This document shows, one piece after another, positions 26,144-58,721 of a DNA stretch of 62,196 bases. The notes under the pieces are model-generated. The model did no database searches. It saw only the letters and a program-made list of their open reading frames with translations, and was not told the origin of the DNA. Made by a program: the position numbers and the translations under genes. The stretch lies in assembly GCA_964527765.1 (NCBI GenBank), contig CAZGQR010000007.1, positions 38,100 to 100,295 on the forward strand, in the 5' to 3' direction. Position 1 is the first letter of the stretch. Each line of letters begins with the position of its first letter. Origin of the DNA: an uncultured Planctomycetia bacterium (GTDB lineage: Bacteria > Omnitrophota > Gorgyraeia > Tantalellales > Tantalellaceae).

Positions 26144-29100
26144 ATGCGCCAAAATTATATTAAACATAGACTGTGGTTCAGGGTCGTAGCGTTAAGCATG
26201 GTCTGTCTTTTTATGCTTAATGATATTTCCTTCGCGGCCCCGGCCGGCATGGGACAAAAACCTCACCATGCGCTTTGTCCCGCCTCAAGATTCAACCCCA
26301 CGTCCGAAATATTCCGGGAAGACGCGGGAGGCCTCTACATAAGCTGCCTTATCGGCCGGGTCCTGCACCGTTACGGCAGCGGTATCAGCGCGAACGGCCT
26401 GAAAAGATTCATAGAAAAACACATTTCCCACATAGGCGATACTGACTTTAAATGGAGGGAGCTGTACAAGGAGGGGGCCACTTTCTGCGTCCCGTTCAGA
26501 AGAAAAGGCGGCGGCAAGAGCCGGACATTCCGTTATTACCTGCCCGGGGACAGGCCCGCGGAGGCGCTCGGTAAGGTCTCGGTACCCGTCGGAGAGGGAA
26601 GCGCGCGGGTCATCTTTGAAGGACAGGAAAAGATCGCGGCGCTGAAAAAAGAACTGGATGAACAGGAAACAAGATTCCCCCTCAGCAGCGGCACCGAAAA
26701 GATCTACACGATCGTCGGAGAGGTCGTGAAAGAGATGCTGGGCGAGAAATTCAAGGGCACCTACTGGGCCGCGGGGTGCGACGTAGGGCCCTGCGGGCAG
26801 ATCGGCGGGAACTGGAATTTCGTTTCGCTGAGCTACGACGAAAGCGCGGACAGCGGTTCCTTCCTGGCGGTTCTTGACAATGCCGACGAGGTAAAAAAGG
26901 CAGGTTACACTCCCGTCTCCTGGGACGTAACGAGCATGACCCTGCCGGAAAAGATCCCGCGCGGTTCCCAGGACGTGGCCCTTATCAAAACAACGGGTGT
27001 CTTGTGGCACGATGAAGATATCCGAAAGGGGCTCTGGCATCTGGCCACGGTATCCCTGAGGGACGGGGGCATCCTGATCGCGGATAAACCGCTGCCGGAA
27101 GAATACGAAAAACTTTACGAGCGGATAACGGACTGGGGAGGCATAAGCGGCTTCAGCGAGATCGCCACCGTAAAATTTCCCGACGGTTCAACTTTCGAAT
27201 ACATAAACGACAAGGTAAGGTTATACAAAAAGAAGAGCACCGCCTCTTTCCGGGGATGGAGAAAATTCTACAGGCGGCTCGCTTCGTACATAAAGGGCTT
27301 CGCGGCGGATATGCGCTGCAGGCTCCTCCAAAGCATCCTGCCTCAGCTGGCCCCCTCGGTCCCGATGTTCCTTCCCTTTTTTCCGGGGATCCCGGACTTC
27401 CTGAGCGCGAACGTGCTGAGCGGCGGCATGTTCCTGCTCGCCGGGGGATTGGAAAGAGAAGAGGAAGATAAGACCGGCGGCCCCGGAGATTCCCTGCAGA
27501 ACGGCCTTAATAAACTCACCGAACTCTCCGAATTATATGACGAGCTTCTTTTGGGGTTGAAAGACTTAAGGGCCGCCGCCGGCGACGCAGAGAAGATCTC
27601 CCCGATGTTAAAGAACCTGGACAGCGGGCTCAGCGGCGGGGTCATCAGCGACACCAAAAAACTCCTCTCTTTATTGAAAAAGCTGGAAAAATCGCAGGCA
27701 AAGAGCGCTGAAGACCTTCCTGCCGCGGCCATGATGGCCGTCCATGACATAACCGACGCGGCTTTGGGCTGCCGCTACTGCCTCCGGCAGATATCCTCGG
27801 AATTCAAAGGTGACCGGGCGAACCTGGGCAGGTATAACCGGATGATCTTCATGAAAGCGCTCCTGGTCAGGATCGAAAAAGCATGTGACGGCATCTTCAT
27901 GGGCGGGCGGATCGATGTGGATAAAACCTGGGTCAGTTTTGAGACAGAGACGGAACCGGATTCGGCTTTCCGGCGGAAAAAACCGGCGAAAGCGCCGAAA
28001 AGACCGCGGCCGGACAAAAAAAGGCGCCGGCGCGCCAAAAAAGAATACGAACTGCCGTCGGAACAGGTCCTGGCCGAGCTGCAGGATCTGGTCGGACAGG
28101 AAGACTATTCATCCGCCGAGGAGCTTCTTCTGGGAGAACTGGACTACGACCCCGAAAACGTGCATCTTCTGGCAGAACTGGCCCACCTTTATTACCAGAC
28201 GGATAATTTCCCCCAGGCAAAAGGGATCTGCGAGCAGGTCCTCGCAAGCGATCCGGATAATTTCCGTGCCCAGGACATCCTGCTGGAGATAAGCCTGACC
28301 GAATCAATGCCGGAAGAAGAGGAAGAGAAAGCGCCGGCGCTGCCCAAAACAGAAAAAGAGCCGATGCTGCCCAAACCAAGCGCGGAGATGAAAAGATTCG
28401 CCGAAAGGTATCCCGACAAGAATCCGCCGGAACTGCTGGAGATACTGGTGGCGGAAGAGAAGTGGAACCTGGCCGGCGAGCTTATAAACAGGATCAAAAG
28501 CGCGCAATACGCGGAAGGACTGGATATCGAAAGCCGGTACAGGATCGACGATCTGGAGAAAATAGTAGCGGAGGCGACGGAGGAGGAGGACCTGGAAAAA
28601 GGCAGATACAGATGGAGCACCCGAAGACAGGCGATAAAAAACATAAGATACGCCGTCGGCGCGAACCGGCCGGATATTATACAAAGATACGATAACATTG
28701 ATAGCCTCAGCCCTGCCCAGATAGAAGCATTAAGAATGGATATCTATAACATATCCTCGGGGCATTTCCGGCTCTGGGGCCTTAACAGTATTTTTGTTCA
28801 CCCGGATTATTTCGGAAGAAGCCACAGTACCGCTTTAATAGCCGCCTTCCCCGGGCTCGACCTTGATCCTCTGGGCTTTCAACTGGACCGGTCCAGCAGG
28901 GAGAAAGCCCTGGGATCGGCAAGATACGTCCTGAAAAGAGAAGCCCCTCACCTCGTGGACGCCTACGACAACCTGGAAAACCTCTCCGGCAGACAGAAAG
29001 AGGTCCAGATAGAAGCATTGAGAGAACAGGTATACCGGATAACCCATGCCCATTTCCAGGTCTGGGGGCTGAGAAGGATGCAATCGTCGGGAAAAAGAGA

Positions 29101-32100: not shown

Positions 32101-35100
32101 CATAAAACCGGTCGCCGGCAGGGTCTTATCGGCGCCGATCACCTATTCCGCCCTGCATGATTCGTACAGGGCCGAGACCAAGAAAAGTTCCAGGTCATGG
32201 GAGGGCAGGATGATCTTTTCCCTGTCAGGAGAGGCCAACAGGATCTTTAAACCGGACAGTTTGCCCCAGGCCGCGGAAGTGGCCGTCAAGGAGGATCCGG
32301 ATTACGGGCCTTATATCGAAGTCTCTTACCGGGGGACCGTTCTTTCAACTTATTATTACTTAAAAGGTCCGGGTCAGTGTAAAACCGTCGATCTTTCAAG
32401 ACTGGCCCTTATCGATTACGCGTTGGGCAAAAAGAATGTCCACGGAAAGCCGGTGCGCCCGCGGCAATTCCGTTATCCGGGAAAAGTAACGGCCGGCGGC
32501 CGGGTGGGATTGGACCACCGGGACAGAAAATATACGGTGAAAAAGCTGGGAAAATCCCTGAAAGGCAAAGAGCCGGTTTTCGTCCCTGTGGAGGACGAGA
32601 AATACGGCTACCTGATCCAGGTCCATGACGCAGCGGAGTACGAGAAAAACACGGACAGGCGGCCCGAATGCGTTCTGCTGAAGGACGCCCGGACCGGCGC
32701 TCTCGTGCCTCCTTCCGTCAACCAGCAGGCCCAGCTGGAAAGAAAGAGACTGCTGGCGTCATTTATCAAAGATAAGGAAGCGATAAGACAGTTCGCCGAC
32801 CCGGAGGAGAAGCGGGCTTCGGTCCTTGAAGAGCTGGCGCGGTGTTCCGGACAGGAGCGTGAAGAATTGACCAAAGAGGTGAGCGAGATAGAGGAAAGGC
32901 CCGTAAAGGACGAGGAGGACCTGAGAACGGTCCTGGCCGGCTGGCTCGACGCCGGGCAGATGGCCGCGGTCTTGAACGCGGACAAGAGCGGGCTGCGTTT
33001 CAGGATAGAGGCCGGGGACATCAGGTCCTTTATCCATGTCGGCAGGGTCCGGCTGTTCCATCCCGTAAAAGTGCTGTCCGAATACATACATTACCAGGAA
33101 AACAAAAAGGAATTAATTGCCCGGCGGCAGTTAAAGGCGATCATACAGGCCCTGCACGATACCGATCCGGAAAAGTTCGCCGAATTCGCCAGGTTCATAA
33201 AAGATGAGGCGGGAGTCTCGGTCGGGGACGCTGATGAGGCCTGGAATGCCTGCAGGGAATGGTTCAACATCAGGACCTACGCGGAGCATCTCGGCCTGGA
33301 CCGCAATACCGTTAATAAGCTTATCATCGACCGCGACCTGAAGACATTCAGGATCGAAGCTTCCCGCGGCAAGCCCATCGAGCTGGTCTCGCCCAAAAGC
33401 GTTGACCGCACGGATAAGGAGATCAGGGACTTTTTAGACGACGTCGAGCGCTGGCATGAGGAGAACCTGGGAGCGGAGATAGAGATCCCCTCGCTCAAGG
33501 ATTTTTATAAGTGGACTCGGTTAATGGACTTACCGAAAATTTTCCCTTTTGTCGGGATATATACTTTCCGGAGGATGACGGACCTGAAGGCCTACAAGGC
33601 CCAGGTAAAACACCTGATCTTTCACGAGATCTACGTGCCGGCGGCGGAGGTGGCCAGGTTAAAGAAAGAAGTGGTCGATCTCCTCAGGGACAAAAAGACA
33701 TGGAAAACGATCAAGAAGCAAAAACTGGTTCCCCAGGGCCTGCCTCCCGGGGAACTGGATTACAGGCTCGCAAAGCGGATCCTCCGGCAGATCAGGAAAG
33801 AATGGCTGAGTATCGGGCAATTTTCCGCGAAGATCGGGCAATCGGACCAGACCGTAAGGACCCTTATCAGGCAAAAGGAAGTGGATCATGTCAAGCTGAG
33901 CATCTTCAGCTCCACCGGCGTCTACTACATAGCGCCGGAAGGCGTGAAAAAAATAAAGGACAAGGACAAAAAGAGCCTGGAGATCGCCCGCCGCTTCCTG
34001 GAAGAGAGATGCGGGGTAAAGACCGGCTCCCTGAGTAAGGTGAAAAGCCTGCTGGAGAAGCACTGCATGACCGCTCCCCAGGTCGCCGAGCGCCTGGGGA
34101 TCTGGCATCTTAAGCGCGCCAGTGCGCTACCCGATACCGTGGTCATAAGCTGGATCGGCAGCGAATCGCCCCTGGTCTACCTGCGAAAGCAGGATGCCGA
34201 AGAACTGATAAAGGGAGAGCAGGAAAAATTCAAGGCGGTAAAAGAGCAGATGGGGCGCTACAGCGACGTCTCCCATGTAAAGAACATAAGCGAACTCATG
34301 GAATTCCTGGAAAGCAGCTGGAAGACCGCCCGGCAATTGTCCGATGAACTTGGTTCGCCGTACTCCTCGATAATGGGAGCGTTCCACAAGGGCAGGATAT
34401 TCGCGGTCAGCACCGACTTCATCAATTACAAGAACAAGGTTTACTTTCCTCCTTCTACCAAAAGCATCGAGACCGCTCAGGAAGAACGGGAGCCGAAAGA
34501 AAAACAGGCAAAGCCCGCACCGGAAACTATCCGGGCGGAGCCCGCAGAGAAAGACCGCCTGAAAGAACAGCTAAGACGTTCCATTGCAGGAAAATTGAAA
34601 AAAGGCATTAACGATATAAAAGTAAATACCGGCTATCCCGGCCTGGTTAACATATACGATACATCGACCGGCGAGCTGATCGCACGCTTCAAGTATAGTG
34701 TCCGGCGTGATGACGAGTTTGGGATTACTATGTTTGTAAGCAGGCAGAATGTATATCAGTTTAAGCGCCACGGCATCATGAAGATAATACAAGCCTACCT
34801 TGTCCTCGTTCACAACGCCCGGACCATTTACTTTGACAGCGTTACGGATGACGGCATCAAATATGCCTACGGCTGTAAAGAGCAGGGATTTTTCAGCGAC
34901 GTGAAATTCTTTACTTCCGACAGTATCCGGGCGGTTGTTGATCGCCGCTATGCCGAACTTCTGTTAAAAGGGGAGAGCAATGTGTCGGCTGAATTTACCG
35001 CCGAAGATAAAGAGGCGCAGGACTTCATCGATACGGTCATCCTGCTCGCCGATGAAGCCAAAGGAAGAAAAGAGAAGATCATAATAGGCATCGACACCAG

Positions 35101-35605
35101 CTGGATACCCGGCATGCAAAGATCGGCCGTACAGGGGCTCCTGAACAAGCTGACCCACCTGTCGCAAAGAAGGGGCCTGAACAACGTCATCGTGGAAAGG
35201 GAGACGGGAGAAGACCTGTCGCGCCTGCTGTCGGAGAGGGCGGAAGAGACGGGCACTCCGCTTGCGAACATGATCATCCTCGGCGACCGGAAAGTGCTCA
35301 AGTCAAACGCGTTCGATCCGCTAAGGAACCCCGCAGGGGAGAAGACCGGGGCATTCTTCGCCGAGATAGTCCTGCCGGAGGATTTCCCGGAAACCGGCTA
35401 CGTACGGCTCCTTGAAATGCTCACGATAGCGCTCGACCTCGCTTTTGGAGAACAGGCGTCACTGGGCGATCCCTACATCAGGATAGTCAAGGATGCCGAA
35501 AGAACCGTTCAATTCATGCCCTTGCCCGACGCCAAACCCCTGGGACTCGACGATCTTAAAAAGAAATACCAATATCAGGCGCGAGTCGTAGCAGCCGCGG
35601 CATAA
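26144..35605 (+). CDS. giant multi-repeat protein (3153 aa) with N-terminal signal-anchor
   Basis: Uninterrupted 9.46-kb ORF. N-terminus KHRLWFRVVALSMVCLFMLNDISFAAP. SAM-methyltransferase-like segment, TPR-like segment, 8 x ~97-aa repeats, a beta-rich repeat array, HTH-like repeats, and a C-terminal tail ...ARVVAAAA. Confidence 0.85.
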   Translation: MRQNYIKHRLWFRVVALSMVCLFMLNDISFAAPAGMGQKPHHALCPASRFNPTSEIFREDAGGLYISCLIGRVLHRYGSGISANGLKRFIEKHISHIGDTDFKWRELYKEGATFCVPFRRKGGGKSRTFRYYLPGDRPAEALGKVSVPVGEGSARVIFEGQEKIAALKKELDEQETRFPLSSGTEKIYTIVGEVVKEMLGEKFKGTYWAAGCDVGPCGQIGGNWNFVSLSYDESADSGSFLAVLDNADEVKKAGYTPVSWDVTSMTLPEKIPRGSQDVALIKTTGVLWHDEDIRKGLWHLATVSLRDGGILIADKPLPEEYEKLYERITDWGGISGFSEIATVKFPDGSTFEYINDKVRLYKKKSTASFRGWRKFYRRLASYIKGFAADMRCRLLQSILPQLAPSVPMFLPFFPGIPDFLSANVLSGGMFLLAGGLEREEEDKTGGPGDSLQNGLNKLTELSELYDELLLGLKDLRAAAGDAEKISPMLKNLDSGLSGGVISDTKKLLSLLKKLEKSQAKSAEDLPAAAMMAVHDITDAALGCRYCLRQISSEFKGDRANLGRYNRMIFMKALLVRIEKACDGIFMGGRIDVDKTWVSFETETEPDSAFRRKKPAKAPKRPRPDKKRRRRAKKEYELPSEQVLAELQDLVGQEDYSSAEELLLGELDYDPENVHLLAELAHLYYQTDNFPQAKGICEQVLASDPDNFRAQDILLEISLTESMPEEEEEKAPALPKTEKEPMLPKPSAEMKRFAERYPDKNPPELLEILVAEEKWNLAGELINRIKSAQYAEGLDIESRYRIDDLEKIVAEATEEEDLEKGRYRWSTRRQAIKNIRYAVGANRPDIIQRYDNIDSLSPAQIEALRMDIYNISSGHFRLWGLNSIFVHPDYFGRSHSTALIAAFPGLDLDPLGFQLDRSSREKALGSARYVLKREAPHLVDAYDNLENLSGRQKEVQIEALREQVYRITHAHFQVWGLRRMQSSGKREPYLGRSYIQVLGAVFPELDLDPLGFQLNWSTEEKALESVRYVLKREAPHLVDAYENLENLSGRQREAQIEDLKGKIYRVMHAHFQVWGLGAIINKKMDFLGGSFITALIKTFPELDLDPLGFQLKWSTRRESIRSVKFVLKREVPHIMERYANLDDLDEAEIERLKEDICLITSAHFKVWNLARVLIRKAVPYFRGSYIRVLLAVFKDERLGLSEEEIREFRKRRFQKQYSWREGKEAAIANIKDALERNRPDITQRYAKLNELTPERTEKLKDDIYRITAGHFGVWGIDAALNKKYSAPYFGGSYINALIAAFPELGLDPLGFQFRWSTEQEGIASVRFALEREVPHIMERYRMLSALSEDEIEELKKKIYKITNGHFLIWGIRSATNRHRTPYFKGSHVNALRAVFPELDLDPLGFQLDWSSEERAIASVRFVLQREAPHIIREYDDLASLDQGQRELLKRRIYNIDQGHFRLWGLNCALNSALVPYFGGSHSNALMMMFPELDLDPLGFKLDWSTRNRGIASVRFVFMKEAPHMIEQYDRLDKLNKKEIEELRQAIYGITMAHFSVWGLSSALDRDKTPYFRGSYINALLAVFDDPGLGLTGEEFRGKPAAETGKAPPSAAKTAPRSAPAVDEKTAAARTAKKIIKWCETGRGLKAGDTLAARVEGGRFIHIRAGRKKVKLPFYSWNKKGEDIDVVLVARKDVNHGFVLNCYRARDYRAGDASVPEASFIYCPAKKKPLRIHLGAADIVTVYHSRRRIKSTGRPFRTRINKGGAVHVSTYSRRTGSLIRAKLLVLRKNLREGDLIGREVVALVEDDRNHGRVINVYLASEYNNGRRDKPVTTYKYHKRLKRGKSVLVDLAGLDVIAAYEGRKLELTGRTTSVNIEKGNYGHGVCFLWFMSGTRDEKRVQFSIPKEYMEKGALGKPVIIRVERDVNRGQIINIYLESEFNSLDNPVPLTTYKYFPGLTRHYKTLTKRGVCTNVDLAALDIRDYYRGKNIKPVAGRVLSAPITYSALHDSYRAETKKSSRSWEGRMIFSLSGEANRIFKPDSLPQAAEVAVKEDPDYGPYIEVSYRGTVLSTYYYLKGPGQCKTVDLSRLALIDYALGKKNVHGKPVRPRQFRYPGKVTAGGRVGLDHRDRKYTVKKLGKSLKGKEPVFVPVEDEKYGYLIQVHDAAEYEKNTDRRPECVLLKDARTGALVPPSVNQQAQLERKRLLASFIKDKEAIRQFADPEEKRASVLEELARCSGQEREELTKEVSEIEERPVKDEEDLRTVLAGWLDAGQMAAVLNADKSGLRFRIEAGDIRSFIHVGRVRLFHPVKVLSEYIHYQENKKELIARRQLKAIIQALHDTDPEKFAEFARFIKDEAGVSVGDADEAWNACREWFNIRTYAEHLGLDRNTVNKLIIDRDLKTFRIEASRGKPIELVSPKSVDRTDKEIRDFLDDVERWHEENLGAEIEIPSLKDFYKWTRLMDLPKIFPFVGIYTFRRMTDLKAYKAQVKHLIFHEIYVPAAEVARLKKEVVDLLRDKKTWKTIKKQKLVPQGLPPGELDYRLAKRILRQIRKEWLSIGQFSAKIGQSDQTVRTLIRQKEVDHVKLSIFSSTGVYYIAPEGVKKIKDKDKKSLEIARRFLEERCGVKTGSLSKVKSLLEKHCMTAPQVAERLGIWHLKRASALPDTVVISWIGSESPLVYLRKQDAEELIKGEQEKFKAVKEQMGRYSDVSHVKNISELMEFLESSWKTARQLSDELGSPYSSIMGAFHKGRIFAVSTDFINYKNKVYFPPSTKSIETAQEEREPKEKQAKPAPETIRAEPAEKDRLKEQLRRSIAGKLKKGINDIKVNTGYPGLVNIYDTSTGELIARFKYSVRRDDEFGITMFVSRQNVYQFKRHGIMKIIQAYLVLVHNARTIYFDSVTDDGIKYAYGCKEQGFFSDVKFFTSDSIRAVVDRRYAELLLKGESNVSAEFTAEDKEAQDFIDTVILLADEAKGRKEKIIIGIDTSWIPGMQRSAVQGLLNKLTHLSQRRGLNNVIVERETGEDLSRLLSERAEETGTPLANMIILGDRKVLKSNAFDPLRNPAGEKTGAFFAEIVLPEDFPETGYVRLLEMLTIALDLAFGEQASLGDPYIRIVKDAERTVQFMPLPDAKPLGLDDLKKKYQYQARVVAAAA
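28613..30925 (+). repeat. eight in-frame tandem repeats of ~291 nt (~97 aa) inside giant ORF 1
   Basis: Unit consensus WSxxxxxIxSVRFVLKREAPHIxxxYxxLxxLxxxxIExLKxxIYxITxxHFxVWGLxxALNxxxxPYFxGSYINALxAVFPELDLDPLGFQL. Units 2 and 3 share near-identical ~70-nt stretches (28921-28995 vs 29219-29293). Confidence 0.85.
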
Positions 35606-46365: not shown

Positions 46366-46394
46366 TTGACCTAACAAAGTGCAAATGCTATAAT
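46366..46394 (+). promoter_or_regulatory. sigma70-type promoter with extended -10 for giant ORF 2
   Basis: TTGACC (46366-46371), 17-nt spacer, TGcTATAAT (46386-46394). Confidence 0.6.
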
Positions 46395-46483
46395 AATTCA
46401 AGCTAGATAAAGGCAAACCTGTGGTGACATGGGGGCGCAAAATTAGGGGTCTAGAACTCAAAGGCATAAGTAATTTTAGACAG

Positions 46484-46521
46484 CCCGATTACCTGGAAAT
46501 GAGGTAATCGGGTTTTGTTTT
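46484..46521 (+). terminator. terminator-like hairpin inside the 5' leader of giant ORF 2 (candidate attenuator)
   Basis: CCCGATTACC (46484-46493) pairs with GGTAATCGGG (46503-46512), then TTTTGTTTT. Enclosed by AGGCATAA (46462-46469) and TTATGCCT (46520-46527). Confidence 0.5.
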
Positions 46522-46608
46522 ATGCCTGGGACACGAACTGATCATCTTTCCCCTAATAAGATGATTCAGTTCCCCAGGCAATAAAAAGAGAGAAGAAGCT
46601 AGAGAAAG

Positions 46609-49600: not shown

Positions 49601-50889
49601 ACCCATTTGTATATTTTATGGAAATCTCGGCATGTTTAACAGATGCCAGATATACATTGACCCAAATGGAACGGCTAACGTCTTCCGAGCAAAAGGGTGT
49701 ACGAAAAAAGCTTAAATTACATATATCAAGAAATTTGGAAGGGGTAAAGTGCGCACTAAATGTCCTAAAAAGGCATAAAAAGGAAAAAATATTTACTAAA
49801 AAAGGTGAGCAATTACTTGTGGAGTATACCGAAAAACTGGATCAACTGGAAAAGGCATATGCAGATTCTCTAAAGAAGAAGACACCCACAGCTGTGGCTA
49901 AAAATGCTAAGGCGCGAAAAAAGGACAAAGGCTGTCCGGAGAAGCTCCTTGAGGATATCCGCAACAATGACATTCTACTGAGAAAGGCCCTAAGCGAAGA
50001 AGGCATATCAAGGCAGGAGATACTGGCTATCCGCGACTGGTCCGAGAGGACCGTGGACAGGGAAGTGGAGATCCTAAAGGCACTTGGCATATTTGTTCCT
50101 ATAGAAGAGAAGACCGGACATTACAAATTCAGCGATATGATGAAGGGTCCAAACGAAAATTACACTAAGACCATGATCAATGCAATAAATGACATAAAGT
50201 ACCAAGTTGGCCAAAAAGGCGAAGAAAGGCCGCTTAATCGCTACGATATCCCTAAAGATAAAAGACCTGCGGTAAAAGAGCTCATCAAAATGACTGTATT
50301 ACACCAAGCAAATCTCATGCAAAGGTCAGCTACCCTCGAGAATAAGGTTTTATGGCACATCATTGAACGTGACGTTTTATCTGACTCTCAAAAGAACTCT
50401 TTTGCTCAACAGATAAATACCGCATCAATGAAATCAGGTTCTCCTGAAAGAATATGGATCCTTAAAAGAGAGGAAACAATAAAAGAGGCTATCGCAAAAA
50501 TTAAGGCAATTTGTCCAAACGCTGTCTTCGACGTTGCTTTAAGCAGCCCGGATCATATAGAAAAAATACCGGCCCTGGAAGGGGAAAAAGAGATCAAAAT
50601 GCTTGTTTTTAAGGGGACAGCTGGAGATTTTAGTCAAATAGAGGGCGTAATAGCCGCTTTAAGGGCATTGCATCTCAAGAAAGAACAGGTCATACCGGCT
50701 CTTTTAAGAATATATTCAATTATGGCAGGGGCTCCCTATACCGGAGAGATCCCTTCGGAGGCCACACTGGAGGACGTAAGGGAATTCGCACGCAAGTTTA
50801 TATTTGACCTGCCGCCTGCAACAGAACTGCCTGTCGATGATATCCCGAAGCTTAACGAGAGACTAAAAGAGCTTCTTATAGCAGCTTAA
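46609..50889 (+). CDS. giant protein 2 (1426 aa) with N-terminal signal-anchor, HAD-like motifs and an HExxH motif
   Basis: 4.28-kb ORF. N-terminus NRHRKWIRTIAMVVVCLFSSINITTYADI. FDSDGTLT and GDETGLGNDRE. AIAHELDHARF (49483-49497). Tail ...LKELLIAA. Confidence 0.85.
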   Translation: MSNYKNRHRKWIRTIAMVVVCLFSSINITTYADIAESTLAPKLLTSSITQKNDSGVDTRKVLYRKEGEINKLFDAVSRAHEMGKKPEWEKVGKEASRIKKNWVACYMGPWLAEIYADRVVSEDEALHAREDFRLNFKQAVVGINRSRQEPIPNMDINDILLYADEAFNTLMRSSSDSGWKRQLSRIEIWGSESAEHLTLSPEGDGSMVVMDDSKPFNDEEMKVVYEVLEEIEGYLEELGFPENHPKTGASMKPDYERYENQKLPVYKVILRAYGMEGWNYEFENIHQDEYPPLIGKNGQPQPTRSEIIKVIEQKFKERGCMDFSVSLNRNTIITIVKKGVTKTRGIRKLLEEGPVVYFGDETGLGNDREVSEMAIGEDALLTVGLDKKKKVEKKEKPFPKGVAYTGGLTEGLKKVLKRFTEILKENNTVMPDNKAIAEAFIQAVRDTADWALLKEKGYRDEVDKKLGSFLKAASRSKKPISFAFDSDGTLTTGRGAPIDEETGNILAEMMSFTKGKIAVLTGKLREDLRECYIPDDLCLIAHKNSLITRERKRAIPEKYPGTDEFDEFKRKYFACYTLFAHKAVNEYIKSQIPQEGIEALQSRTDKVIISETEQQEIIIVAIPDLLKNTGQLAHIGLGSRNGVPTAYVDSTYFYDEDVLAHEKDEIASWERKRKELDLTYKEMREWIKTNPEAKKLASEFHASSYSLESSHSRIQEKYQNLLDLDNIYAAYLAYGFDVDDNDVNIAAHKKKKRDEAISPEIIKMVVGQCQGIVQTLDMSTGDKCIERELKKINKILKERQNDKALIYALLAVDMYEINKVIMDNTDDDSLFFSNPILFVNDHVRKSVKEFARQIKNAVASYEREKYFPDSDVRVVATYAGGIDKDLRFLKKSTDQIFEIFPELRRVFLNLPAILIRNLKWPLAAFDWEGAKTIKISKEFLDLAKKDISIFYLLGSAIAHELDHARFDSSYKLGDLIAWSVEFEREEKNLTPITPNTLNPFVYFMEISACLTDARYTLTQMERLTSSEQKGVRKKLKLHISRNLEGVKCALNVLKRHKKEKIFTKKGEQLLVEYTEKLDQLEKAYADSLKKKTPTAVAKNAKARKKDKGCPEKLLEDIRNNDILLRKALSEEGISRQEILAIRDWSERTVDREVEILKALGIFVPIEEKTGHYKFSDMMKGPNENYTKTMINAINDIKYQVGQKGEERPLNRYDIPKDKRPAVKELIKMTVLHQANLMQRSATLENKVLWHIIERDVLSDSQKNSFAQQINTASMKSGSPERIWILKREETIKEAIAKIKAICPNAVFDVALSSPDHIEKIPALEGEKEIKMLVFKGTAGDFSQIEGVIAALRALHLKKEQVIPALLRIYSIMAGAPYTGEIPSEATLEDVREFARKFIFDLPPATELPVDDIPKLNERLKELLIAA

Positions 50890-50901
50890 TCTTTATCTAT
50901 A

Positions 50902-52096: not shown

Positions 52097-52097
52097 G

Positions 52098-52214: not shown

Positions 52215-52222
52215 TTATTTAG

Positions 52223-52345: not shown

Positions 52346-52437
52346 TTATAGAAAGTTCTGTCATTCCCGCGAAAGCAGGAATCCATAAGCCCGGTTATTG
52401 GTGTAGGTGGTTTTTAAGGCGCATTTTGGTCACCAGT

Positions 52438-52873
52438 TTAATCATGGCGAAATCCTATCCTGCGTTTCGGCTTTTCTTCAACAGGCGGTTCGACTAGCCG
52501 CTGGATCGCTTCAAAGATCACTATAATTTCTTTATCATGGCGATCTACTTTCTCTTGCAGGAATTCAAGTTGCAGTAAAATTTCTTTGTGTTTAATTATA
52601 GTTTCACGCAATTTAACATAAGGGCATAGCGCCCGAATGTTTAAGCGAATTCAACCGGTGACAAATTGTCACCAGTTCGTCCCGTTCTTTTTTATTAAGC
52701 CTGAACATGAATTCCTTTGGAAACCGCTGAATATTACGCTTGACCTGCCGATTCAAATATTTCGTCTCTACTCCGTACAGCTCAGCGATGTCTTTATCTA
52801 TGATGACCTTTTGACTGCGTATCAAGAAAATCCTTTGCTCAACAACTTCTTGTGGAATCAATTCTTTAACCAT
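52438..52873 (-). pseudogene. ORF6N domain gene, copy 4, internal deletion and frameshift
   Basis: The N-terminal 86 codons (52613..52873) stop after ...LVTICHRLNSLKHSGAMPLC. The AFTE...LNS core is absent. The C-terminal ...[26 protein letters not shown] is retained in another frame (52438-52612). Confidence 0.75.
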
Positions 52874-53276: not shown

Positions 53277-56200
53277 GTGAAAAGAACAAAAAGACTTAAT
53301 TTCTTTAAAATAATATCTATTTTCCTTGTCCTCAGTTTCCCGTTCAATGACGCGGCCTTCGCGATACCGGAACTTTCCAATATGCAAAGTCCGTCAAGCC
53401 CGCTCCAGCCATGGACCTTTACTGATAATTTCCTTGTGAAGCGTGAAATACTCTCGGAACTATATAAAAGATCACGGCTAATATGGATCGCCAAATCGAA
53501 AAGATACCGCGATCTCCTGGAGCAACATAACGCCGGGGCGCTGCTCCTTCCTTCGGGCAGGTATTTGATGGCGCAAGAGACAATGAAGGACGACCTCTCC
53601 CTGATCAGCGCCGTTACCCATGAGGATTATGAGATACTCATGCAGCGCGAACAAAAATCAAAACCTGCCAGATATGAAAAAGTTATGAAAGAAGTCCTTG
53701 GAAATAACCAGATCAGGCGCGCTTATTTTTCGCTGCCCGGATGCGAAAAAGCGAGTGACAACGTGATTTTTAACGATCTGATCGCGAAGGGCTTCGAGCT
53801 TCTGTTCCTTGTTGAAAATTCCCTCGTCGATCCGCGGACAGAACTTTCCCCGGAAGAAAAAACATTTCTTAAGAATATACGACCCGTCCTGGAAGCAAGG
53901 GATAAAAAAGGCGCTTATGAGAATTTCTCTCCGGTCTTTTTTGACGTCACGGAAAGGTTAAAGACCGTAAAAGACGCGCAGGAAGACGCGGATCAAAGAT
54001 TTTATAAAAGCGCTTCTTCAAAGAGGCAAACGCCGGACAACGAACAAGATGCGTCCGACAAACGGTTCAAATCCATCCTGCGCGCTTTAAGGAAAAAAGG
54101 GTTTTATATCGCAGGGGCGGCTGTGGTGGGCGCGTTCCTGGCGCTGGGAAACGCAGCGGCGGAACCGACAAAGACACTGAAAGAACTTCCTTCGAATGAT
54201 GAAAAACTGCGGCTTATTTTTGAAAATGCTCAAGAAGGCAAATATTCCTACGCGACATTTTTTGACGAGCTCATAAAGATCGACGATTTTCGCGTGTTTA
54301 GATATCTCGCGGGGCTCATGGAAAAGCATGAAATGCCGGCCATTCGCGAGCTTGCTGTCGAAACCCTGGCACGGCTTAATGACGTACGCGGGCTCGGGCC
54401 GCTGTTAAGAGCAAAGCTTTACGATAAAGACCCCGCCGTGCGGAAAAAAGCGAAAGAAGTCATTAAAAAGTACGAATATCTGGACTCGCTCAGTGCCCTT
54501 ATAAATGTTCTTATACAGGAAGACGACCCGAACATGCGCGAGGAGGTCCTTGCCGCCCTGGAAAAGCTCGATGACCCGGAGGCAGTTGAAGCGCTTTACA
54601 GGTTAAAAAAATTCCGCTCCGAAGGGACGGGTCTGAGCCGGATGGAGGCGGAGAAGGTGCGTCAAAACGCCGAAAAAACCCTGAAAGCCCTGGAAAAACT
54701 GGATGTACCGCGGATAAAAGAAGCGTTATCGCTGCGTACTCTCCCCGGGGAAGTGAAGCGTGAATGGTGGGAAACAGCCCTTCTGGGGGCCATAGCGCTG
54801 TGCAGTTTGCTTATTTTCTGGAAGGTGTTTATCGGGATATATAGGTACCGCAGGCTGAAAAAACACCTGCGGCGCGCCGAAACCATAGATCAGCTCATTA
54901 AAACGATCAAGACGTACAGGGGCAAGGGAGGAGTGTTCACGGATTCCGCGATAATAGCGAAAGCCCGGGAGATAACGGATGGCCTTGCGGAAAAGGCGAA
55001 AACGCTGCAAGATCTTAGCGAAATCGAAAAACAATTAGAAGCATTAGAAAAGTGGTTTTCGTCAGACCACATATCGACGGTCAAGTCCGGGGAATTACAG
55101 TCCAGAAAGTGGCATCTAGAGCAGGTAAAAGTAACCGAATTGCGCACCGGGATGATCAAGCGTTTGCAGTCCGCCGAAACCATTGACGAGATCATCCGGA
55201 TAATCGAAGAAGACAAAGGGAGCAAAAAAAGTGTATTAACCGCCGAAGGCACAAGTAAAAGCATAACACCGCTTTTAACAACCGCTCTGGGAAAAATCAA
55301 AGATCTGGAAGACTTAATAAAGGTAGAAGAGAAAATAACAAGGATAAAAGGGTATTTTTCCTATGCTTCAAAATCCCTTTTCGCCCGGGATTTATTTCGA
55401 AAAAAAGAAGAAGAGTTCCTGCAAAAGGAGAAAGAGAGCTTTGCTTCAAAGTTGCGTTTGGCGGAAAGTAACGAAAAATTTGAACTGGTCTTAATGGAAA
55501 AACTTGAATCTGTCTGCGGCCACATCGATAAAGAACAGTTTTTCCTGAGAACCGCCATGGATCTCGCTCATACCTACGACAGGCTAAAGAGCGTTTGCGA
55601 GTTCAATCATACCCGGACGGGTTCAAATATCATAGGCGCCGGGGAAATAATTAAAAAGCTTGAATCGCTGGGGATCAAACCGTCCGACAAACAATTAAAA
55701 GCGTTTTTCATCGAACTGGTGTGGAAAGGCGCGGAAACGCGCGTTAAAATATTGCGGCAACTCGCCAAAAAATTCGACGAAGAGCGAAAGGCGGACAAAA
55801 AGCGAAAAGCGGATCGGGGTTTAACGGAATATGGCCGCTGGACCGATTACCTTTTCGGCGAAGACAAAGTCCCAAGAAAAAGCGCTGAAATCGCGAAACA
55901 AATAAAAGAGAACTTGTCCGGCATGGATATACCGCTCTTAGAAACAACCGCGCGCAAAGTAAGCTCTATGTCTACGGAAGAGGATGCCGCGACTCTCATC
56001 GAAATGTTCAATGCCATACACTTTGCCAATAAAATGGACGTGATCTTCAACCAAAACCGTCCGTACGCCAAGAGTTATGAAGAATCGAAGGACGAAAAGG
56101 ACCTTGATTTTGAGAATTATTGCGCTGGCCTGATCGAATCCTACGGCTTAATTTCCTTCAAGAATGAGGCCGGAAAGAAGGCGATGGTTGATTTTCTCGG

Positions 56201-58721
56201 CGGAGTAGCCGGAAACGGCCTTGATTACGCGGTTTATGTCAGGCAGGCGGCCGTTACCGCGCTCAGAAAGATCGGCGGCCCGGATGCGGAAACAGATGTT
56301 GAGAGCGTCATTGAAGATCCGGATATAATGACAAGAGAGGTCAGGGTAGAGAAGTGGCATTCGCAGGACAGGATAAAGCATGCGATCATTGACGGTCTTA
56401 AATTCGTGGCAGGCGAACAGGCCCTGCCCGGAACCGTGAAAGATATAGAGAATAATATAGATTACGTTTTTGACAGGATCCCGGGGCTGGTCGACTTTTT
56501 AAAAAAATACCCCTTGAGGTTATTCCGGATGAGAGACAAGCGGAAGATAGACTCGATCGTGCTCGGTGAGTTCAGAAAGTACTGGTTCAGGATACTCGGG
56601 TACGTATGGTTCTACGGCATAAGCGGCGGGGGCATGTTCGAGGCCTACAGGGAAATAGTGCTTCGACACCAGGATTCGCCGATAGACATGGGCGTGGCTG
56701 TTGAGCTTTTCACCAACAGGCATATTCTGGCAAGCGTACTGTATCATGAATACATGCATTACAAGGGTGAATTGAGCGAAGGCAAAACCCTTTTCAGGCA
56801 GATAAACTTCCTGAGAGAAATAATCGCCGGGGAAGGCCTTTCCGATCCTGCCGGAATGGCGAAAATGGAAAAACAGATCGCGGAGTGTATTACTGCGTTG
56901 GGATTATTGCCTCTTGGCCTGTTTCTCATGTTCCCGCACGATGAAAACTACAGAAAAAACCTGAACAGTTTCATATTATCGGCTTACGGTCCCGACGATA
57001 TGACAGACGCGGACATGCGCAAAGAAGCGGAAAGGATCATACAAAACGTAAAAGATTTCATCAACAGGGCGAACAAGAAAATAGAGATACAGAAACTTAC
57101 TGAACCTAACCTGCAATTCTACAAGCCCCTGACAGAAGAGCAGGAAAGCCAGATCATGACCTTCGTGAGGCTTTCCAAGCAGGTGAAAAACGCTGTCAGC
57201 GAAGCGGACTTCCGAAATATCCAGATAAACGACGAAAAAGCACTGGAATTATGGGAGGAATATCTGAAAAAAGGCGGCGGGTCCGTTTTAAAGTCGGACC
57301 TGATAGGCGACTTTGACTCGATCGTAAGGTGGGGACTTTCATCCGGCGGTATTCTGGACGGTCCCAAAAACCTTTTACGCGGCGACGTGAACGAACTGAC
57401 CGAGACCCATCCCGCGCTTGAAAAAGCCGCGAATGACGGCAGGATGTTCGCCGTGAGAGAGGACCAGGTCAGCAGCCTGCGCGAATCGGACAACGAGGCT
57501 CTGGCGTTGATCGTTACAGGGAACCTTGTCAATCTCAAGCACCCCGAGGGAACAAGAAACAAGATCCTCGAAAAGCTCAAGGACCCGATCTTCAGAAGGA
57601 ACATACTGGAAGGCCTGCGCATGATGAAGGATGCCGCGGGCGACCGCCTGCCTCAAAAGATACCCACCCGTTTATGCATAATCGTCGAAAAAGAAGACCA
57701 GCCAGCTGTAATATTCCGGGACAAAGACAATAATCTCATCGCTCATACCGGCAAAGGCTACAAGACAAACAGCCCCTATCATTCCATCTATGTCGGCTAC
57801 AGCGTGGTGGAATATGCCGCCGGCTCGGACAGGGAAGAGGACTTCAAAAGGATCATCCGCCATGAAATAAAAGATCTCCTGATCGGTCGTCATGATAGCG
57901 AGGACGAAGAGCTGGGAAAAATAGAACAATTTTACGACGATCTTATCTATGAACGATTGAAACATCTGAAACCGGTAGCGGACGCTTTTTATTATCTGGG
58001 AAAAGCGGCAAAAGAAACGGGTCTCAACAATTACACAAGCCGGTTAGGCGGCACTTGCCAGAAATCCTTCAACCGTTCGAACCTTCGGTACTGCATCCCG
58101 ATGGAAGTGTTCAAGAACGCGCCCGACGCTACGCTCGCATTGAAAAGGCTTGACATGCTAAACAATAAAAGAAGGGGGCAGGAGAAGATCGAACTTGAGA
58201 TCATCCTGACCGGCGTTACTGAGCATGACGAGGAATCGCTCGGCCGTTTCAACAGAAATGATATCAAGTGCGTGCTCGGGCTGCCTGACAACCTGAAGAT
58301 ATCCTTTATAAGATCGGAAGAAATGAGGTCGGCGGCAGAACGGACATTCAAAGATCTGAACAACCCATCAGACAGGATAGAAGTGATAAAATCGTTAGCC
58401 CTGCAGGTGAAGCCGCTCGCGGAAAACGAATATATGGCGATTGCTGAGGTCACAGGGAATGCCGATAGCATTGATCTTATAAGAGGCAAAACAGAACCGC
58501 AACTGGCAGACAACCTTTCATTAAGGGTGCTGGTCCGGCCGGAACGCGGAAAAAGCGCATTTTCGCTCGCCGCCGTAATAAACGGCTGGCTGAAAGAGCT
58601 TCACCGGGGCCGGACTTCCACGTTCGATGTTATCCTGCCTGTCATGATCTCTCCGCGTGAGATGATAGACCTTCTCGCTGAAAAAACGGAAAAAGCCTGG
58701 CGAATCTTAGCCTCAGCATAG
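53277..58721 (+). CDS. giant protein 3 (1814 aa) with N-terminal signal-anchor, two internal TM segments, HEAT-like repeats and an HExxH motif
   Basis: GTG start after GAAGGGG. N-terminus KRLNFFKIISIFLVLSFPFNDAAFAIPE. HEAT-like AIRELAVETLARLND...DPAVRKKAKEV...DPNMREEVLAALEKLDDPEAVEAL. VLYHEYMHYKG (56745-56759). Tail ...AWRILASA. Confidence 0.85.
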   Translation: MKRTKRLNFFKIISIFLVLSFPFNDAAFAIPELSNMQSPSSPLQPWTFTDNFLVKREILSELYKRSRLIWIAKSKRYRDLLEQHNAGALLLPSGRYLMAQETMKDDLSLISAVTHEDYEILMQREQKSKPARYEKVMKEVLGNNQIRRAYFSLPGCEKASDNVIFNDLIAKGFELLFLVENSLVDPRTELSPEEKTFLKNIRPVLEARDKKGAYENFSPVFFDVTERLKTVKDAQEDADQRFYKSASSKRQTPDNEQDASDKRFKSILRALRKKGFYIAGAAVVGAFLALGNAAAEPTKTLKELPSNDEKLRLIFENAQEGKYSYATFFDELIKIDDFRVFRYLAGLMEKHEMPAIRELAVETLARLNDVRGLGPLLRAKLYDKDPAVRKKAKEVIKKYEYLDSLSALINVLIQEDDPNMREEVLAALEKLDDPEAVEALYRLKKFRSEGTGLSRMEAEKVRQNAEKTLKALEKLDVPRIKEALSLRTLPGEVKREWWETALLGAIALCSLLIFWKVFIGIYRYRRLKKHLRRAETIDQLIKTIKTYRGKGGVFTDSAIIAKAREITDGLAEKAKTLQDLSEIEKQLEALEKWFSSDHISTVKSGELQSRKWHLEQVKVTELRTGMIKRLQSAETIDEIIRIIEEDKGSKKSVLTAEGTSKSITPLLTTALGKIKDLEDLIKVEEKITRIKGYFSYASKSLFARDLFRKKEEEFLQKEKESFASKLRLAESNEKFELVLMEKLESVCGHIDKEQFFLRTAMDLAHTYDRLKSVCEFNHTRTGSNIIGAGEIIKKLESLGIKPSDKQLKAFFIELVWKGAETRVKILRQLAKKFDEERKADKKRKADRGLTEYGRWTDYLFGEDKVPRKSAEIAKQIKENLSGMDIPLLETTARKVSSMSTEEDAATLIEMFNAIHFANKMDVIFNQNRPYAKSYEESKDEKDLDFENYCAGLIESYGLISFKNEAGKKAMVDFLGGVAGNGLDYAVYVRQAAVTALRKIGGPDAETDVESVIEDPDIMTREVRVEKWHSQDRIKHAIIDGLKFVAGEQALPGTVKDIENNIDYVFDRIPGLVDFLKKYPLRLFRMRDKRKIDSIVLGEFRKYWFRILGYVWFYGISGGGMFEAYREIVLRHQDSPIDMGVAVELFTNRHILASVLYHEYMHYKGELSEGKTLFRQINFLREIIAGEGLSDPAGMAKMEKQIAECITALGLLPLGLFLMFPHDENYRKNLNSFILSAYGPDDMTDADMRKEAERIIQNVKDFINRANKKIEIQKLTEPNLQFYKPLTEEQESQIMTFVRLSKQVKNAVSEADFRNIQINDEKALELWEEYLKKGGGSVLKSDLIGDFDSIVRWGLSSGGILDGPKNLLRGDVNELTETHPALEKAANDGRMFAVREDQVSSLRESDNEALALIVTGNLVNLKHPEGTRNKILEKLKDPIFRRNILEGLRMMKDAAGDRLPQKIPTRLCIIVEKEDQPAVIFRDKDNNLIAHTGKGYKTNSPYHSIYVGYSVVEYAAGSDREEDFKRIIRHEIKDLLIGRHDSEDEELGKIEQFYDDLIYERLKHLKPVADAFYYLGKAAKETGLNNYTSRLGGTCQKSFNRSNLRYCIPMEVFKNAPDATLALKRLDMLNNKRRGQEKIELEIILTGVTEHDEESLGRFNRNDIKCVLGLPDNLKISFIRSEEMRSAAERTFKDLNNPSDRIEVIKSLALQVKPLAENEYMAIAEVTGNADSIDLIRGKTEPQLADNLSLRVLVRPERGKSAFSLAAVINGWLKELHRGRTSTFDVILPVMISPREMIDLLAEKTEKAWRILASA

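Follow-up and report, generated by a model that had tools for sequence, protein, structure and literature searches.

A stretch of 62,196 nucleotides from an uncultured Planctomycetia bacterium (assembly GCA_964527765.1, contig CAZGQR010000007.1, positions 38,100 to 100,295 of the forward strand), referred to below as the window and placed by GTDB in the Omnitrophota, carries three very large open reading frames (ORFs), designated here G1, G2 and G3. The three encoded proteins are members of an undescribed family of large proteins of Candidatus Omnitrophota, and the family is defined by two constant modules, namely a conserved N-terminal leader of about 31 residues and a C-terminal domain of about 200 residues with Ala-Ala or Ser-Ala at its very end. 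Between the two modules lie 0.3 to 7 kb-equivalents of unrelated, exchangeable sequence. The original prediction, which was made from the letters of the window, had placed three ORFs with shared termini here, and both the ORFs and the termini it quoted were located as it had described.

Two coupled terminal modules define the family

When G1, G2 and G3 were compared by BLASTP, the N-termini alone were found to align among the three proteins (G1-G2, E=0.003; G1-G3, E=0.025). Smith-Waterman scores for the first 35 residues were 60 for G1-G2, 51 for G1-G3 and 17 for G2-G3. For the null, the giants were scored against 76 other signal-peptide-like or transmembrane-like N-termini taken from the window and from related loci (mean ~21, standard deviation (sd) ~4, maximum 34). 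The G1-G2 and G1-G3 similarities thus lie 7-9 sd above the signal-peptide null, and the G2-G3 score is at the null level; hence, G1 bridges G2 and G3. Moreover, G2 and G3 each match a hidden Markov model (HMM) of the family leader, which bears out the shared N-terminus that had been claimed for the three proteins.

A leader profile was prepared from the first ~50 residues of G1, G2 and G3, without any C-terminal sequence, and was searched with HMMER against 1.84 billion representative proteins (E<=1e-3). The search returned 57 proteins, almost all of them aligned at their own residues 1-50, with library-wide E-values down to 6e-19. These comprised G2 and G3 of the window, two low-complexity false positives (P0004 and P0018) and 53 further proteins from many samples, each representing one cluster at 50% identity. 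Many of the further proteins are 1,000-7,400 residues long, and those that carry names, P0040 and P0035 among them, are named Candidatus Omnitrophota. The leader HMM was also run against the six-frame translation of 133 loci, where it matched family genes only, with scores of 46-74 bits (60.6 for G2 and 46.2 for G3). One of these matches (47 bits) was a tandem member downstream of P0040 that was absent from the training set.

Other searches were negative. With whole G2 and G1 as queries, a word-indexed database of 5.8 billion proteins returned the query alone, a result that reflects the limits of the word index and not missing relatives. The alignment of 56 leaders gave no match in the same database (127 candidates were scored), and a scan of GTDB genomes with G1 gave no relative. 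No paper was found in the literature on this leader, on the C-terminal domain or on the riboswitch-gene pairs described below.

Column counts were taken over 56 leaders, whose length is fixed at about 31 residues. In the first half of the leader the conserved columns are M1, Y4, [KR]7 (49/56), H8, [RK]9, W11 (43/56), [KR]13 (56/56) and A16 (46/56). The hydrophobic core of 12 residues spans positions 14-25 and contains V20 (50/56), C21 (55/56), L22 (53/56) and F23 (55/56); N26 (52/56) follows it. In the c-region, [SAT]29 (47/56), [WFY]30 and A31 (48/55) are followed by P33 (36/54), which corresponds to position +2, where it is permitted. About 12 residues past the leader there is a further motif, T43-L44-x-P-x-S-x-F-x-P, with L44 present in all 56 sequences. 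G1 conforms to this pattern: its basic n-region contains W11, its 12-residue core contains V20-C21-L22-F23 and is followed by N26, S29-F30-A31 is the predicted signal peptidase I site, and the conserved L44-x-P46 is encoded at 26273-26281. The G3 leader is divergent, having Ser in place of the conserved Cys.

With these n-, h- and c-regions, the leader has the form expected of a Sec signal peptide cleaved by signal peptidase I, and the column counts favour this cleavable form over the signal-anchor originally proposed. From this anatomy it is predicted to insert N-in/C-out, with cleavage after A31. The N-terminal motif that had been put forward was correct in part: the similarity in the n- and h-regions is specific to the family, while the [FY]-A portion is generic, being the usual signal-peptidase site of this organism's signal peptides (for example, STSYA, SLSYA and SMSFA). 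Judged by its columns, the leader is conserved far beyond the needs of Sec. Such conservation, together with the invariant Leu44 motif, suggests recognition by something more specific than Sec.

Several known leader types were considered and rejected. A bacterial lipoprotein would require a lipobox ([LVI][ASTVI][GAS]-C), and Cys21 is preceded by V19-V20 and followed by Leu-Phe, with Ser replacing Cys in G3. A twin-arginine translocation (Tat) signal (S/T-R-R-x-F-L-K) does not fit an n-region that reads [KR]-H-[RK]-x-W-[FI]-K and has no adjacent Arg-Arg consensus. ESPR (PF13018), YSIRK and KxYKxGKxW (TIGR03715) were not matched by any of the 56 leaders in hmmscan searches of Pfam and NCBIfam at E<=10, and neither database holds a model of the leader.

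The proteins found through the leader were then scored at their opposite ends. Among the 28 matches of at least 500 residues, 18 end in Ala and 14 in Ala-Ala or Ser-Ala. The corresponding figure for background ORFs ending in Ala-Ala or Ser-Ala is 17 of 892 (1.9%; Fisher p=2.6e-15 against 14/28). The pattern [LI]P-x16-34-A, closed by the C-terminus, occurs in 15 of the same 28, and C-termini with a strand, [LI]P, a helix and terminal Ala recur among the leader matches, for example ...ALPPVVKAAIDTLKEYHMATQILLQSA, ...LALPPIVRMPVDRLEEFHEHIQRALRAA, ...FKLLPSAEEMDTQKLIGKYAMLERFLEAA and ...FRFIPRAEPFEFEELRNLYEIQRQAIAAAA. Two apparent exceptions are truncated proteins: P0006 lacks the C-terminal module, which is carried by its full-length cluster mate P0063, and P0053 ends inside the C-terminal domain. 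Hence, many proteins found by the leader alone also carry the C-terminal module, and the similarity of the termini exceeds matched nulls at both ends, the N-terminal scores with respect to signal peptides and the C-terminal tails with respect to background ORFs. Neither of the two outcomes that had been named with the original prediction as refuting it was observed.

From the window alone, the evidence for a shared C-terminal tail is weak. For the last 80-220 residues of G1, G2 and G3, shuffle tests gave no significant similarity, and a three-sequence MAFFT alignment was unconvincing. When comparisons were anchored at the end, over the last 20-30 residues, G1-G2 and G1-G3 outscored all 561 giant-versus-other comparisons; in addition, a nonpolar tail of five residues is present in all three giants and in 10 of 187 other ORFs. 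The decisive support for the shared tail that had been proposed comes from the outside proteins found by the leader only. Pairwise statistics inside the window on a domain of 150-220 residues are null, and the domain becomes visible only with homologues from outside it.

An alignment of ~20 C-termini showed that the last ~45 residues are common to all, consisting of a strand, [LI]P, a helix and terminal Ala. The terminal element, about 18 residues long, is an amphipathic helix that closes with [A/S]-A-COOH. Upstream of the last ~45 residues the sequences fall into sub-families, one with G1, P0007, P0054 and P0063, and another with G2, P0051, P0056 and P0035. The G1 C-terminus is 48-53% identical to those of P0007 and P0054 and 33% identical to that of P0063; the G2 C-terminus is homologous to those of P0051 (E=4e-20) and P0056 (E=1e-10); and the C-terminal region of G3, the least similar of the three, aligns to the family module. 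The module is therefore a domain of ~200 residues, which goes beyond the tail-sized similarity originally noticed.

AlphaFold2 models of the C-terminal domain were obtained for G1 (predicted local distance difference test (pLDDT) 80.2, predicted template-modelling score (pTM) 0.73) and G2 (pLDDT 78.9, pTM 0.76). Both have the element order H-b-a-b-a-b-a-b-a-...-b-H: a long helix is followed by four beta-alpha units and then by a variable insert, and the chain closes with one more strand and the terminal helix. The tail forms the end of a helix. When the two models were compared with the PDB by Foldseek, only generic Rossmann-like or flavodoxin-like matches appeared (E>=2.6e-3, template-modelling score <=0.34). 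No Pfam or NCBIfam match was found for 18 C-terminal domains.

Known C-terminal sorting elements were likewise rejected. The C-terminal domain (CTD) of type IX secretion system (T9SS) cargo, PEP-CTERM/exosortase and LPXTG/sortase signals had no Pfam or NCBIfam match in G1-G3 or in the 18 domains, and the family module has an alpha/beta fold and closes with an amphipathic helix that ends in Ala-Ala; no hydrophobic span stands at its terminus. As a sequence feature only, the nonpolar Ala-Ala tail agrees with that of an ssrA-like degron (ClpX C-motif 1) or of a substrate of a tail-specific protease.

Interiors and upstream regions of the family genes

The original prediction had described the proteins as shared termini around swappable interiors, and alignments of G1 and of the pair P0063/P0007 demonstrate this directly. 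G1 and P0063 share 44% identity over residues 1-214 (3e-46) and 33% over the last 215 residues (5e-21), and the ~2,500 residues in between are unaligned. Every significant high-scoring segment pair (HSP) of G1 to family members falls within the first 260 or the last 300 residues. The parts of G1 that align with homologues are residues 1-260 and the last ~210, and about 2,650 interior residues have no match. HSPs of G2 are likewise found at the ends, with one interior exception. P0063 (2,897 aa) and P0007 (6,375 aa) are positional orthologues, found in two genomes at one chromosomal position where the order is Rnf operon, enolase, DivIC, PfkB and then the family gene, and can be aligned at residues 1-176 and over the last ~200 residues only. 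Orthologues in different species retain ends that are 31-44% identical around interiors that have been replaced. P0054 (680 aa) is a near-minimal member, with little besides a G1-type N-module and the C-module.

The interiors of G1, G2 and G3 are also unrelated to one another, as BLASTP and the family-wide comparison both confirmed. Searches of the three proteins in Pfam, NCBIfam, PADLOC and PDB sequences gave TPR, HEAT and weak HAD and HTH matches only. The domain labels given earlier could be retained in part: TPR_19 in G1 (6e-9) and HEAT_2 in G3 (4.5e-14) are solid, while HAD and HTH fall below the curated cut-offs, and the HExxH motif occurs in G2 (at residue 959) and in G3 (at residue 1157) and is absent from G1. 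Family-wide, the interiors contain methyltransferases, Ser/Thr kinases, a deaminase, HATPase, sigma70_r2, HTH, acyltransferase, radical S-adenosylmethionine (SAM)/B12, ARMT1 phosphatase, PMT_2, HEAT, TPR, HExxH and transmembrane segments. In a crude hydropathy scan, the number of internal transmembrane segments was zero or even in most complete members. The scan found no internal hydrophobic segment in 9 of the 21 complete members; G1, G2 and P0046, a methyltransferase protein, are among these nine.

Upstream of the coding regions, G1 and G2 share the promoter core TGTTGACCTAAC...ATGCTATAATA, as had been noticed before; it belongs to a near-consensus sigma-70 promoter with an extended -10 element. 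A close variant of the core, TTGACTTAAC-N9-ATGCTATATT, is present upstream of P0037, which comes from an unrelated metagenome. Between this core and G2 lie a riboswitch and a terminator that were not in the original prediction. The riboswitch is a cyclic diguanylate (c-di-GMP)-I-type (GEMM-I; Rfam clan CL00126) aptamer that scores barely over threshold on the GGC-variant model, and the 5' arm of the intrinsic terminator overlaps its last 16 nt. Owing to this overlap, the ligand-bound aptamer should prevent termination, as in an ON switch.

Aptamers at or above the gathering score were also detected upstream of P0043, of the ORF after P0040, of P0037 and of P0042. An overlapping terminator with a T-run was seen at four loci, those of G2, P0043, the ORF after P0040 and P0037 (the last three on L131, L129 and L128). 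No riboswitch was found at G1, G3, P0040, P0007 or P0063, and no other Rfam family was found upstream of G1 or G3. We infer that about half of the family loci examined, G2 included, would be switched on by c-di-GMP, the presumed ligand, through competition between a GEMM-I aptamer and a terminator. It may be noted that PilZ genes and GGDEF domains surround Omnitrophota giant genes according to West-Roberts et al. (10.1101/2023.11.21.568195).

Some observations on individual loci may be added here. A second long hairpin, at about 46525-46590, lies just before the ribosome-binding site of G2. In the 5' leader of G1, a possible stem-loop of ~60 nt (GCGGCTAAAT...ATTTAGGCCGC; 26072-26132, plus strand) ends 11 nt before the start codon, and no clear Shine-Dalgarno sequence is visible at the G1 start. 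On L129 (JBHPLI010000003.1), 10001-41915 holds the tandem members, P0040 (7,388 aa) and then a leader-bearing ORF of >3,150 aa that is cut by the contig end. Similar small unknown ORFs stand in series upstream of P0040 and of P0043, together with genes for a response regulator and a histidine kinase, and tRNA genes stand directly upstream and/or downstream of P0037, P0040, P0043 and P0063. P0043 occurs in samples that also contain the window, and its source population may be that of the window or one co-resident with it. P0042 is encoded at 9749-13333 of L136 (CP070635.1, GCA_020356125.1), a record of 1.07 Mb labelled 'Thermoplasmatales archaeon', with an archaeal-type Trm56 gene close by; unless this taxonomic assignment is mistaken, an archaeon carries both the family and a bacterial second-messenger riboswitch.

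The three genes and their surroundings

The features of the window and of the related loci are collected in Table 1.

Table 1. Positions of the features described. Coordinates are those of the window unless a locus (L) is named.
Feature	Position	Strand	Remarks
G1	26144..35605	+	3,153 aa
G1 leader	26144..26236	+	residues 1-31 (MRQNYIKHRLWFRVVALSMVCLFMLNDISFA)
G1 C-terminal domain	34988..35602	+	residues ~2949-3153; alpha/beta, end strand-MPLP-helix-VVAAAA
G1 promoter	26009..26038	+	TTGACC-N18-TGcTATAAT; 11/12 consensus positions, extended -10
G2	46609..50889	+	1,426 aa; leader, weak HAD-like matches, HExxH at residue 959, weak HTH_11, C-terminal domain
G2 leader	46609-46704	+	residues 1-32
G2 C-terminal domain	50242..50886	+	residues ~1212-1426; end FIFDLPPATELPVDDIPKLNERLKELLIAA (LLIAA)
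G2 promoter	46366..46394	+	TTGACC-N17-TGcTATAAT; 11/12 consensus positions, extended -10
c-di-GMP-I-type aptamer, G2 5' leader	46403..46497	+	RF03167, 59.3 bits vs gathering 59, E=1.9e-11 (whole window)
Intrinsic terminator, G2	46482..46524	+	13-bp stem (46482-46514), then TTGTTTTATG
G3	53277..58721	+	1,814 aa; GTG start
G3 leader	53277-53363	+	residues 1-29; divergent
G3 C-terminal region	58074..58718	+	residues ~1600-1814; end FDVILPVMISPREMIDLLAEKTEKAWRILASA (ILASA)
ORF6N vestige upstream of G1 (probable)	25863..25992	-	two colinear HSPs, E=0.33 each (weak)
ORF6N, divergent from G2	45551..46087	-	intact; PADLOC candidate defence family PDC-S05 (E=1e-58)
ORF6N, divergent from G3	52438..52873	-	split into two ORFs (86 aa, 57 aa)
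Riboswitch, L131			RF03167, 63.2 bits
Riboswitch, L129			RF01051, 53.3 bits (gathering 35)
Riboswitch, L128			RF01051, 53.1 bits
Riboswitch, L136			RF01051, 57.1 bits
tRNA genes, L128	1860-1930, 8764-8836		near family members
tRNA gene, L129	9516-9586		near family members
tRNA genes, L131	9138-9208, 20917-20989		near family members
tRNA gene, L134	18799-18870		near family members

G1 consists of the leader, an N-domain of ~215 residues that is common to P0063, P0007, P0054 and P0031, a TPR segment (649-712), two repeat arrays, HTH-like segments and the C-terminal domain. The first array (residues ~870-1560; 28760-30800) has eight tandem repeats of ~96 residues with the motif HFxVWGL ... DPLGFQL, and the second (residues ~1690-2150; 31200-32600) has about five beta-rich repeats of ~115 residues. 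Neither repeat type matched anything in Pfam, in PDB sequences or in the protein database. The public gene call puts the start of G2 at M17 (1,410 aa), by which the basic half of the leader (46609-46656) is lost; the family alignment shows that the real start is the upstream ATG at 46609. G3 contains HEAT repeats (376-442), the HExxH motif, three internal hydrophobic segments (275-295, 497-523 and 1200-1220) and the C-terminal module.

The TrkH of the window is 84-89% identical to that of metagenome-assembled genomes of Candidatus Omnitrophota, and the same locus is present on longer contigs in several other assemblies. In JGI metagenome 3300018080 the window is contig Ga0180433_10000594. G1 is surrounded by ordinary chromosome, with TrkAH, a ferredoxin, an extracytoplasmic function (ECF) sigma/anti-sigma pair and an MscS channel. 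The window holds no secretion system, as had been stated earlier, and its sole envelope-channel gene is of the CsgG family (16106-17092). Elsewhere in the window, a match to the Rfam cspA thermoregulator (42912-43400, plus strand; 79.9 bits against a gathering score of 78) spans the 5' leader and the coding region of a cold-shock gene at 43082-43354.

G2 and G3 lie in an island of lower GC content with recurring ORF6N genes that match PADLOC family PDC-S05, and each of the two is divergent from an ORF6N unit, in agreement with the original prediction. The unit beside G3 is probably a frameshifted pseudogene. A vestige of ORF6N is probably also divergent from G1, as judged from a segment resembling the ORF6N upstream region followed by remnants of the last ~30 codons (QLRIVFKVIKKLM, then DKPKRRIGF). 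Minus-strand ORF6N genes recur every few kilobases over 44898-62196 (at 44898, 45551, 50902, 52438 and 61448) and again outside the window, and they separate variable cargo. This island continues in L043 and L044 from position 11467, and beyond the window the samples differ, one having type I restriction-modification genes and another flavodoxin/PIN and HigB/HTH-M78 cassettes. The region looks like an ORF6N-delimited variable or defence island. The ORF6N copy at 50902-51414 (minus strand) lacks the conserved C-terminal ~35 residues, and its last codons enter a bidirectional terminator hairpin (50910-50945) after the G2 stop; recombination or insertion at the 3' end of G2 may have truncated it. 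A Pyr_excise gene (PF03013; T4 endonuclease V-like family; 51555-51890, plus strand) stands alone between two ORF6N copies.

No ORF6N was found beside six other family members examined. Conversely, 80 ORF6N loci from diverse organisms, retrieved by a metagenome scan with an ORF6N query, contained no family member. Hence, ORF6N is not a general partner of the family, and the association is local.

Possible role of the shared ends

We hold, with moderate confidence, that the ends serve as export and handling labels for a variable cargo that would be made when c-di-GMP rises. The leader would carry the protein into or across the cytoplasmic membrane, and a dedicated factor may read its conserved features together with the T-L-x-P motif. 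The C-terminal domain, with its free Ala-Ala carboxyl end, would be a second handling module, which might have a PDZ-type or secretion component as its docking partner or be recognised by a tail-specific protease. Given such roles at both termini, the ends would act as address and handling labels. The original suggestion, that surface or effector proteins share one route of export or sorting, is plausible.

Several points weigh against this reading. No secretion, sortase-like or PDZ gene recurs beside the members examined (the window and six other members). No candidate catalytic or binding residue is conserved in the C-terminal domain, the near-invariant positions being one Pro and the terminal Ala, and the agreement of the G1 and G2 models is supportive and not independent, for they drew on largely the same alignment of 17-18 sequences. 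The segment counts in G3 (3) and P0045 (9) are odd, so that the C-terminal domain may lie on either side of the membrane. Moreover, many interior domains need cytoplasmic cofactors, as listed for radical SAM with B12-binding in P0050, SAM methyltransferase with ARMT1 in P0046, Pkinase with deaminase in P0040, sigma70_r2 with HATPase in P0007 and acyltransferase with kinase in P0063. Such interiors are awkward for a Sec-exported protein unless it acts in another cell; they fit either delivery into another cell or a membrane-tethered protein that is not secreted.

The latter case is a serious rival, although a less probable one. The N- and C-modules would then be the ancestral core of a membrane-tethered intracellular scaffold into which enzymatic and regulatory arrays were inserted, with the bulk of the protein in the cell's own cytoplasm or on both membrane faces; the Ala-Ala end would be structural, or an ssrA-like degron (ClpX 'LAA-COOH' class) for rapid turnover after c-di-GMP-induced synthesis. 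Tails such as LIAA, LLAA, LMAA and LRAA resemble the end of the ssrA tag that ClpX recognises, according to the rule reported by Flynn et al. (2001 and 2003). Interiors of cytoplasmic type (radical SAM/B12, SAM methyltransferases, Ser/Thr kinases, sigma70_r2, HTH, deaminase) and the internal hydrophobic segments of many members point the same way, as does P0054, which is little more than the two end modules. In a 2026 preprint (10.64898/2026.06.07.730766), most long Omnitrophota proteins are classed as membrane-anchored, 46% having transmembrane helices (TM) only and 39% a signal peptide (SP) with TM. The leader, however, with its strongly basic n-region, ~12 hydrophobic residues and A-x-A site, predicts an N-in/C-out orientation, and in the 9 of 21 complete members without an internal hydrophobic segment the whole chain would be translocated. 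A constitutive degron on a protein of 3,000-7,000 residues would also be very costly.

Type I secretion system (T1SS) signals occupy the last ~60 residues of a protein, often with small or hydrophobic end residues. The family proteins could on this model be substrates akin to the LapA-like giant adhesins, the C-terminal helix and small-residue tail being an uncleaved signal and the N-terminus a retention element, with display controlled by c-di-GMP. An uncleaved conserved element with an amphipathic helix at the extreme C-terminus, the large size and the c-di-GMP control would suit it. We nevertheless consider it quite improbable: the proteins start with a Sec-type leader, internal transmembrane segments occur in several members, what is conserved at the C-terminus is a folded alpha/beta domain of ~200 residues and not a disordered signal, no repeats-in-toxin (RTX)/Ca-binding repeats (HemolysinCabind or related) and no adhesin-type Ig or cadherin repeats were found, and there are no genes for an ATP-binding cassette (ABC) transporter, a membrane fusion protein (MFP) or TolC near any examined member. 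The proteins thus differ from RTX-type substrates, which are recognised by glycine-rich nonapeptide repeats, the lack of a signal peptide and a nearby operon for ABC, MFP and outer membrane factor (OMF).

Two further explanations deny the ends any role. The ends might be an unconstrained by-product of recent duplication or recombination at the local ORF6N repeats, all three genes being divergent to an ORF6N unit, G1 and G2 sharing promoter-core DNA, and G2 and G3 lying in a low-GC variable island whose content depends on the sample. This reading, very improbable in our estimate, is already contradicted by the cross-species orthologues, whose ends persist while their interiors are replaced. In addition, the same ends are found on the 53 other representative proteins from many samples, the loci of six other members have no ORF6N nearby, and the coding ends of the three genes have no DNA-level similarity, which argues against recent gene conversion. 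Finally, a chance or generic resemblance of any signal peptides and C-termini could draw on the generic [FY]-A c-region and on the non-significant pairwise tests of the last 80-220 residues. It is refuted by the N-terminal scores, the leader HMM scores and E-values and the coupling of the termini given above, and its probability is negligible.

The reading of the ends as export and handling labels may be carried further, into a more specific scheme that we regard as unlikely: a dedicated two-label delivery system of the Omnitrophota, in which large polyproteins induced by c-di-GMP would pass the inner membrane by means of the leader and be handed by the C-terminal domain to an envelope machine, for display or for injection into prey or host cells. 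The Omnitrophota are widespread, uncultured and very small bacteria that are thought to be predators or parasites, and are known for extremely long genes without known function. If the scheme is true, the kinases, methyltransferases, deaminases, radical-SAM enzymes, sigma- and HTH-like modules and HExxH peptidases would act in the target cell, and the family would provide these nanobacteria, as predators or parasites, with a repertoire of effectors in which cargo is swapped between constant ends.

Whatever the role of the ends, the 31-residue leader and the ~200-residue C-terminal domain form a signature that makes a class of large Omnitrophota proteins tractable. With it, members can be listed in any genome and gene starts can be corrected, as for G2, and the machinery that reads both ends can be sought by phyletic co-occurrence. 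The coupling to a c-di-GMP riboswitch offers a regulatory input open to direct testing. With its conserved ends and its freely exchanged interiors of several kilobases, the family is also a clear natural example of modular cargo exchange, and if the ends prove to be export labels they would be usable for engineering.

Among known systems, the cargo of the T9SS is similar in that large, otherwise unrelated proteins carry a Sec signal together with a folded, conserved domain at the C-terminus, which acts as a second sorting label. The T9SS CTD, however, is a beta-sandwich of ~80-100 residues that matches TIGR04183/Pfam, whereas the family domain is alpha/beta, of ~200 residues, and without an HMM or PDB match; the T9SS signal peptides themselves are not conserved, the system belongs to Bacteroidota, and none of its genes was seen here. 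Gram-positive surface proteins with YSIRK/GS and LPXTG likewise have a motif-bearing signal peptide that is coupled to a sorting element at the C-terminus, and the interiors between the two are variable and often very large; the [LI]-P near the C-terminus of the family resembles LPXTG superficially. Unlike in those proteins, LP is followed here by an amphipathic helix ending in Ala-Ala and not by a hydrophobic span and basic tail; there is no YSIRK match, no sortase was seen, and the host is a bacterium of the Planctomycetes-Verrucomicrobia-Chlamydiae (PVC) group, presumably diderm. An aromatic/basic n-region on unusually large exported proteins (here Y-K-N-R-H-R-x-W-[FI]-K) is also a feature of ESPR (PF13018), in autotransporters and TpsA, and of KxYKxGKxW (TIGR03715), in accessory-Sec serine-rich adhesins. 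The family leader differs in being short (31 residues) and in the conservation of its h-region as well (V-C-L-F, N26), and the proteins have no beta-barrel or serine-rich repeats.

In type IV secretion system (T4SS) effectors (Xanthomonas XVIPCD; Bartonella BID with tail), a folded C-terminal domain of 120-200 residues and a short tail are the sole common part of unrelated enzymes, as in the family. Those effectors are recruited from the cytoplasm without a Sec leader, however, no sequence or fold relation to them was detected, and no T4SS genes were seen nearby. The Omnitrophota giants of the Archaeovorin and Dockerin types (10.1101/2023.11.21.568195) and the long proteins catalogued in the 2026 preprint (10.64898/2026.06.07.730766) belong to the same phylum and are likewise long, with SP and/or TM helices, mixed enzymatic domains and a link to c-di-GMP through neighbouring PilZ/GGDEF. 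They differ in exceeding 10-30 thousand residues and in having SecA_DEAD, many TM helices and flanking genes for type II secretion and type IV pili; G1-G3 have 1,426-3,153 residues, no SecA match and 0-3 internal hydrophobic segments, with neighbours for ion transport, ECF sigma and ORF6N. Term searches of both papers gave no passage on a conserved leader, C-terminal domain or riboswitch. As regards regulation, the family may be compared with surface proteins controlled by c-di-GMP, namely LapA/LapG/LapD of Pseudomonas and the GEMM-I adhesins and pilins of Clostridioides difficile. Neither group is related to the family in sequence; Lap control is post-translational and T1SS-based, and the C. 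difficile targets are sortase substrates. What they have in common with the family is that the second messenger switches large envelope proteins, and here a GEMM-I aptamer stands upstream of five family genes.

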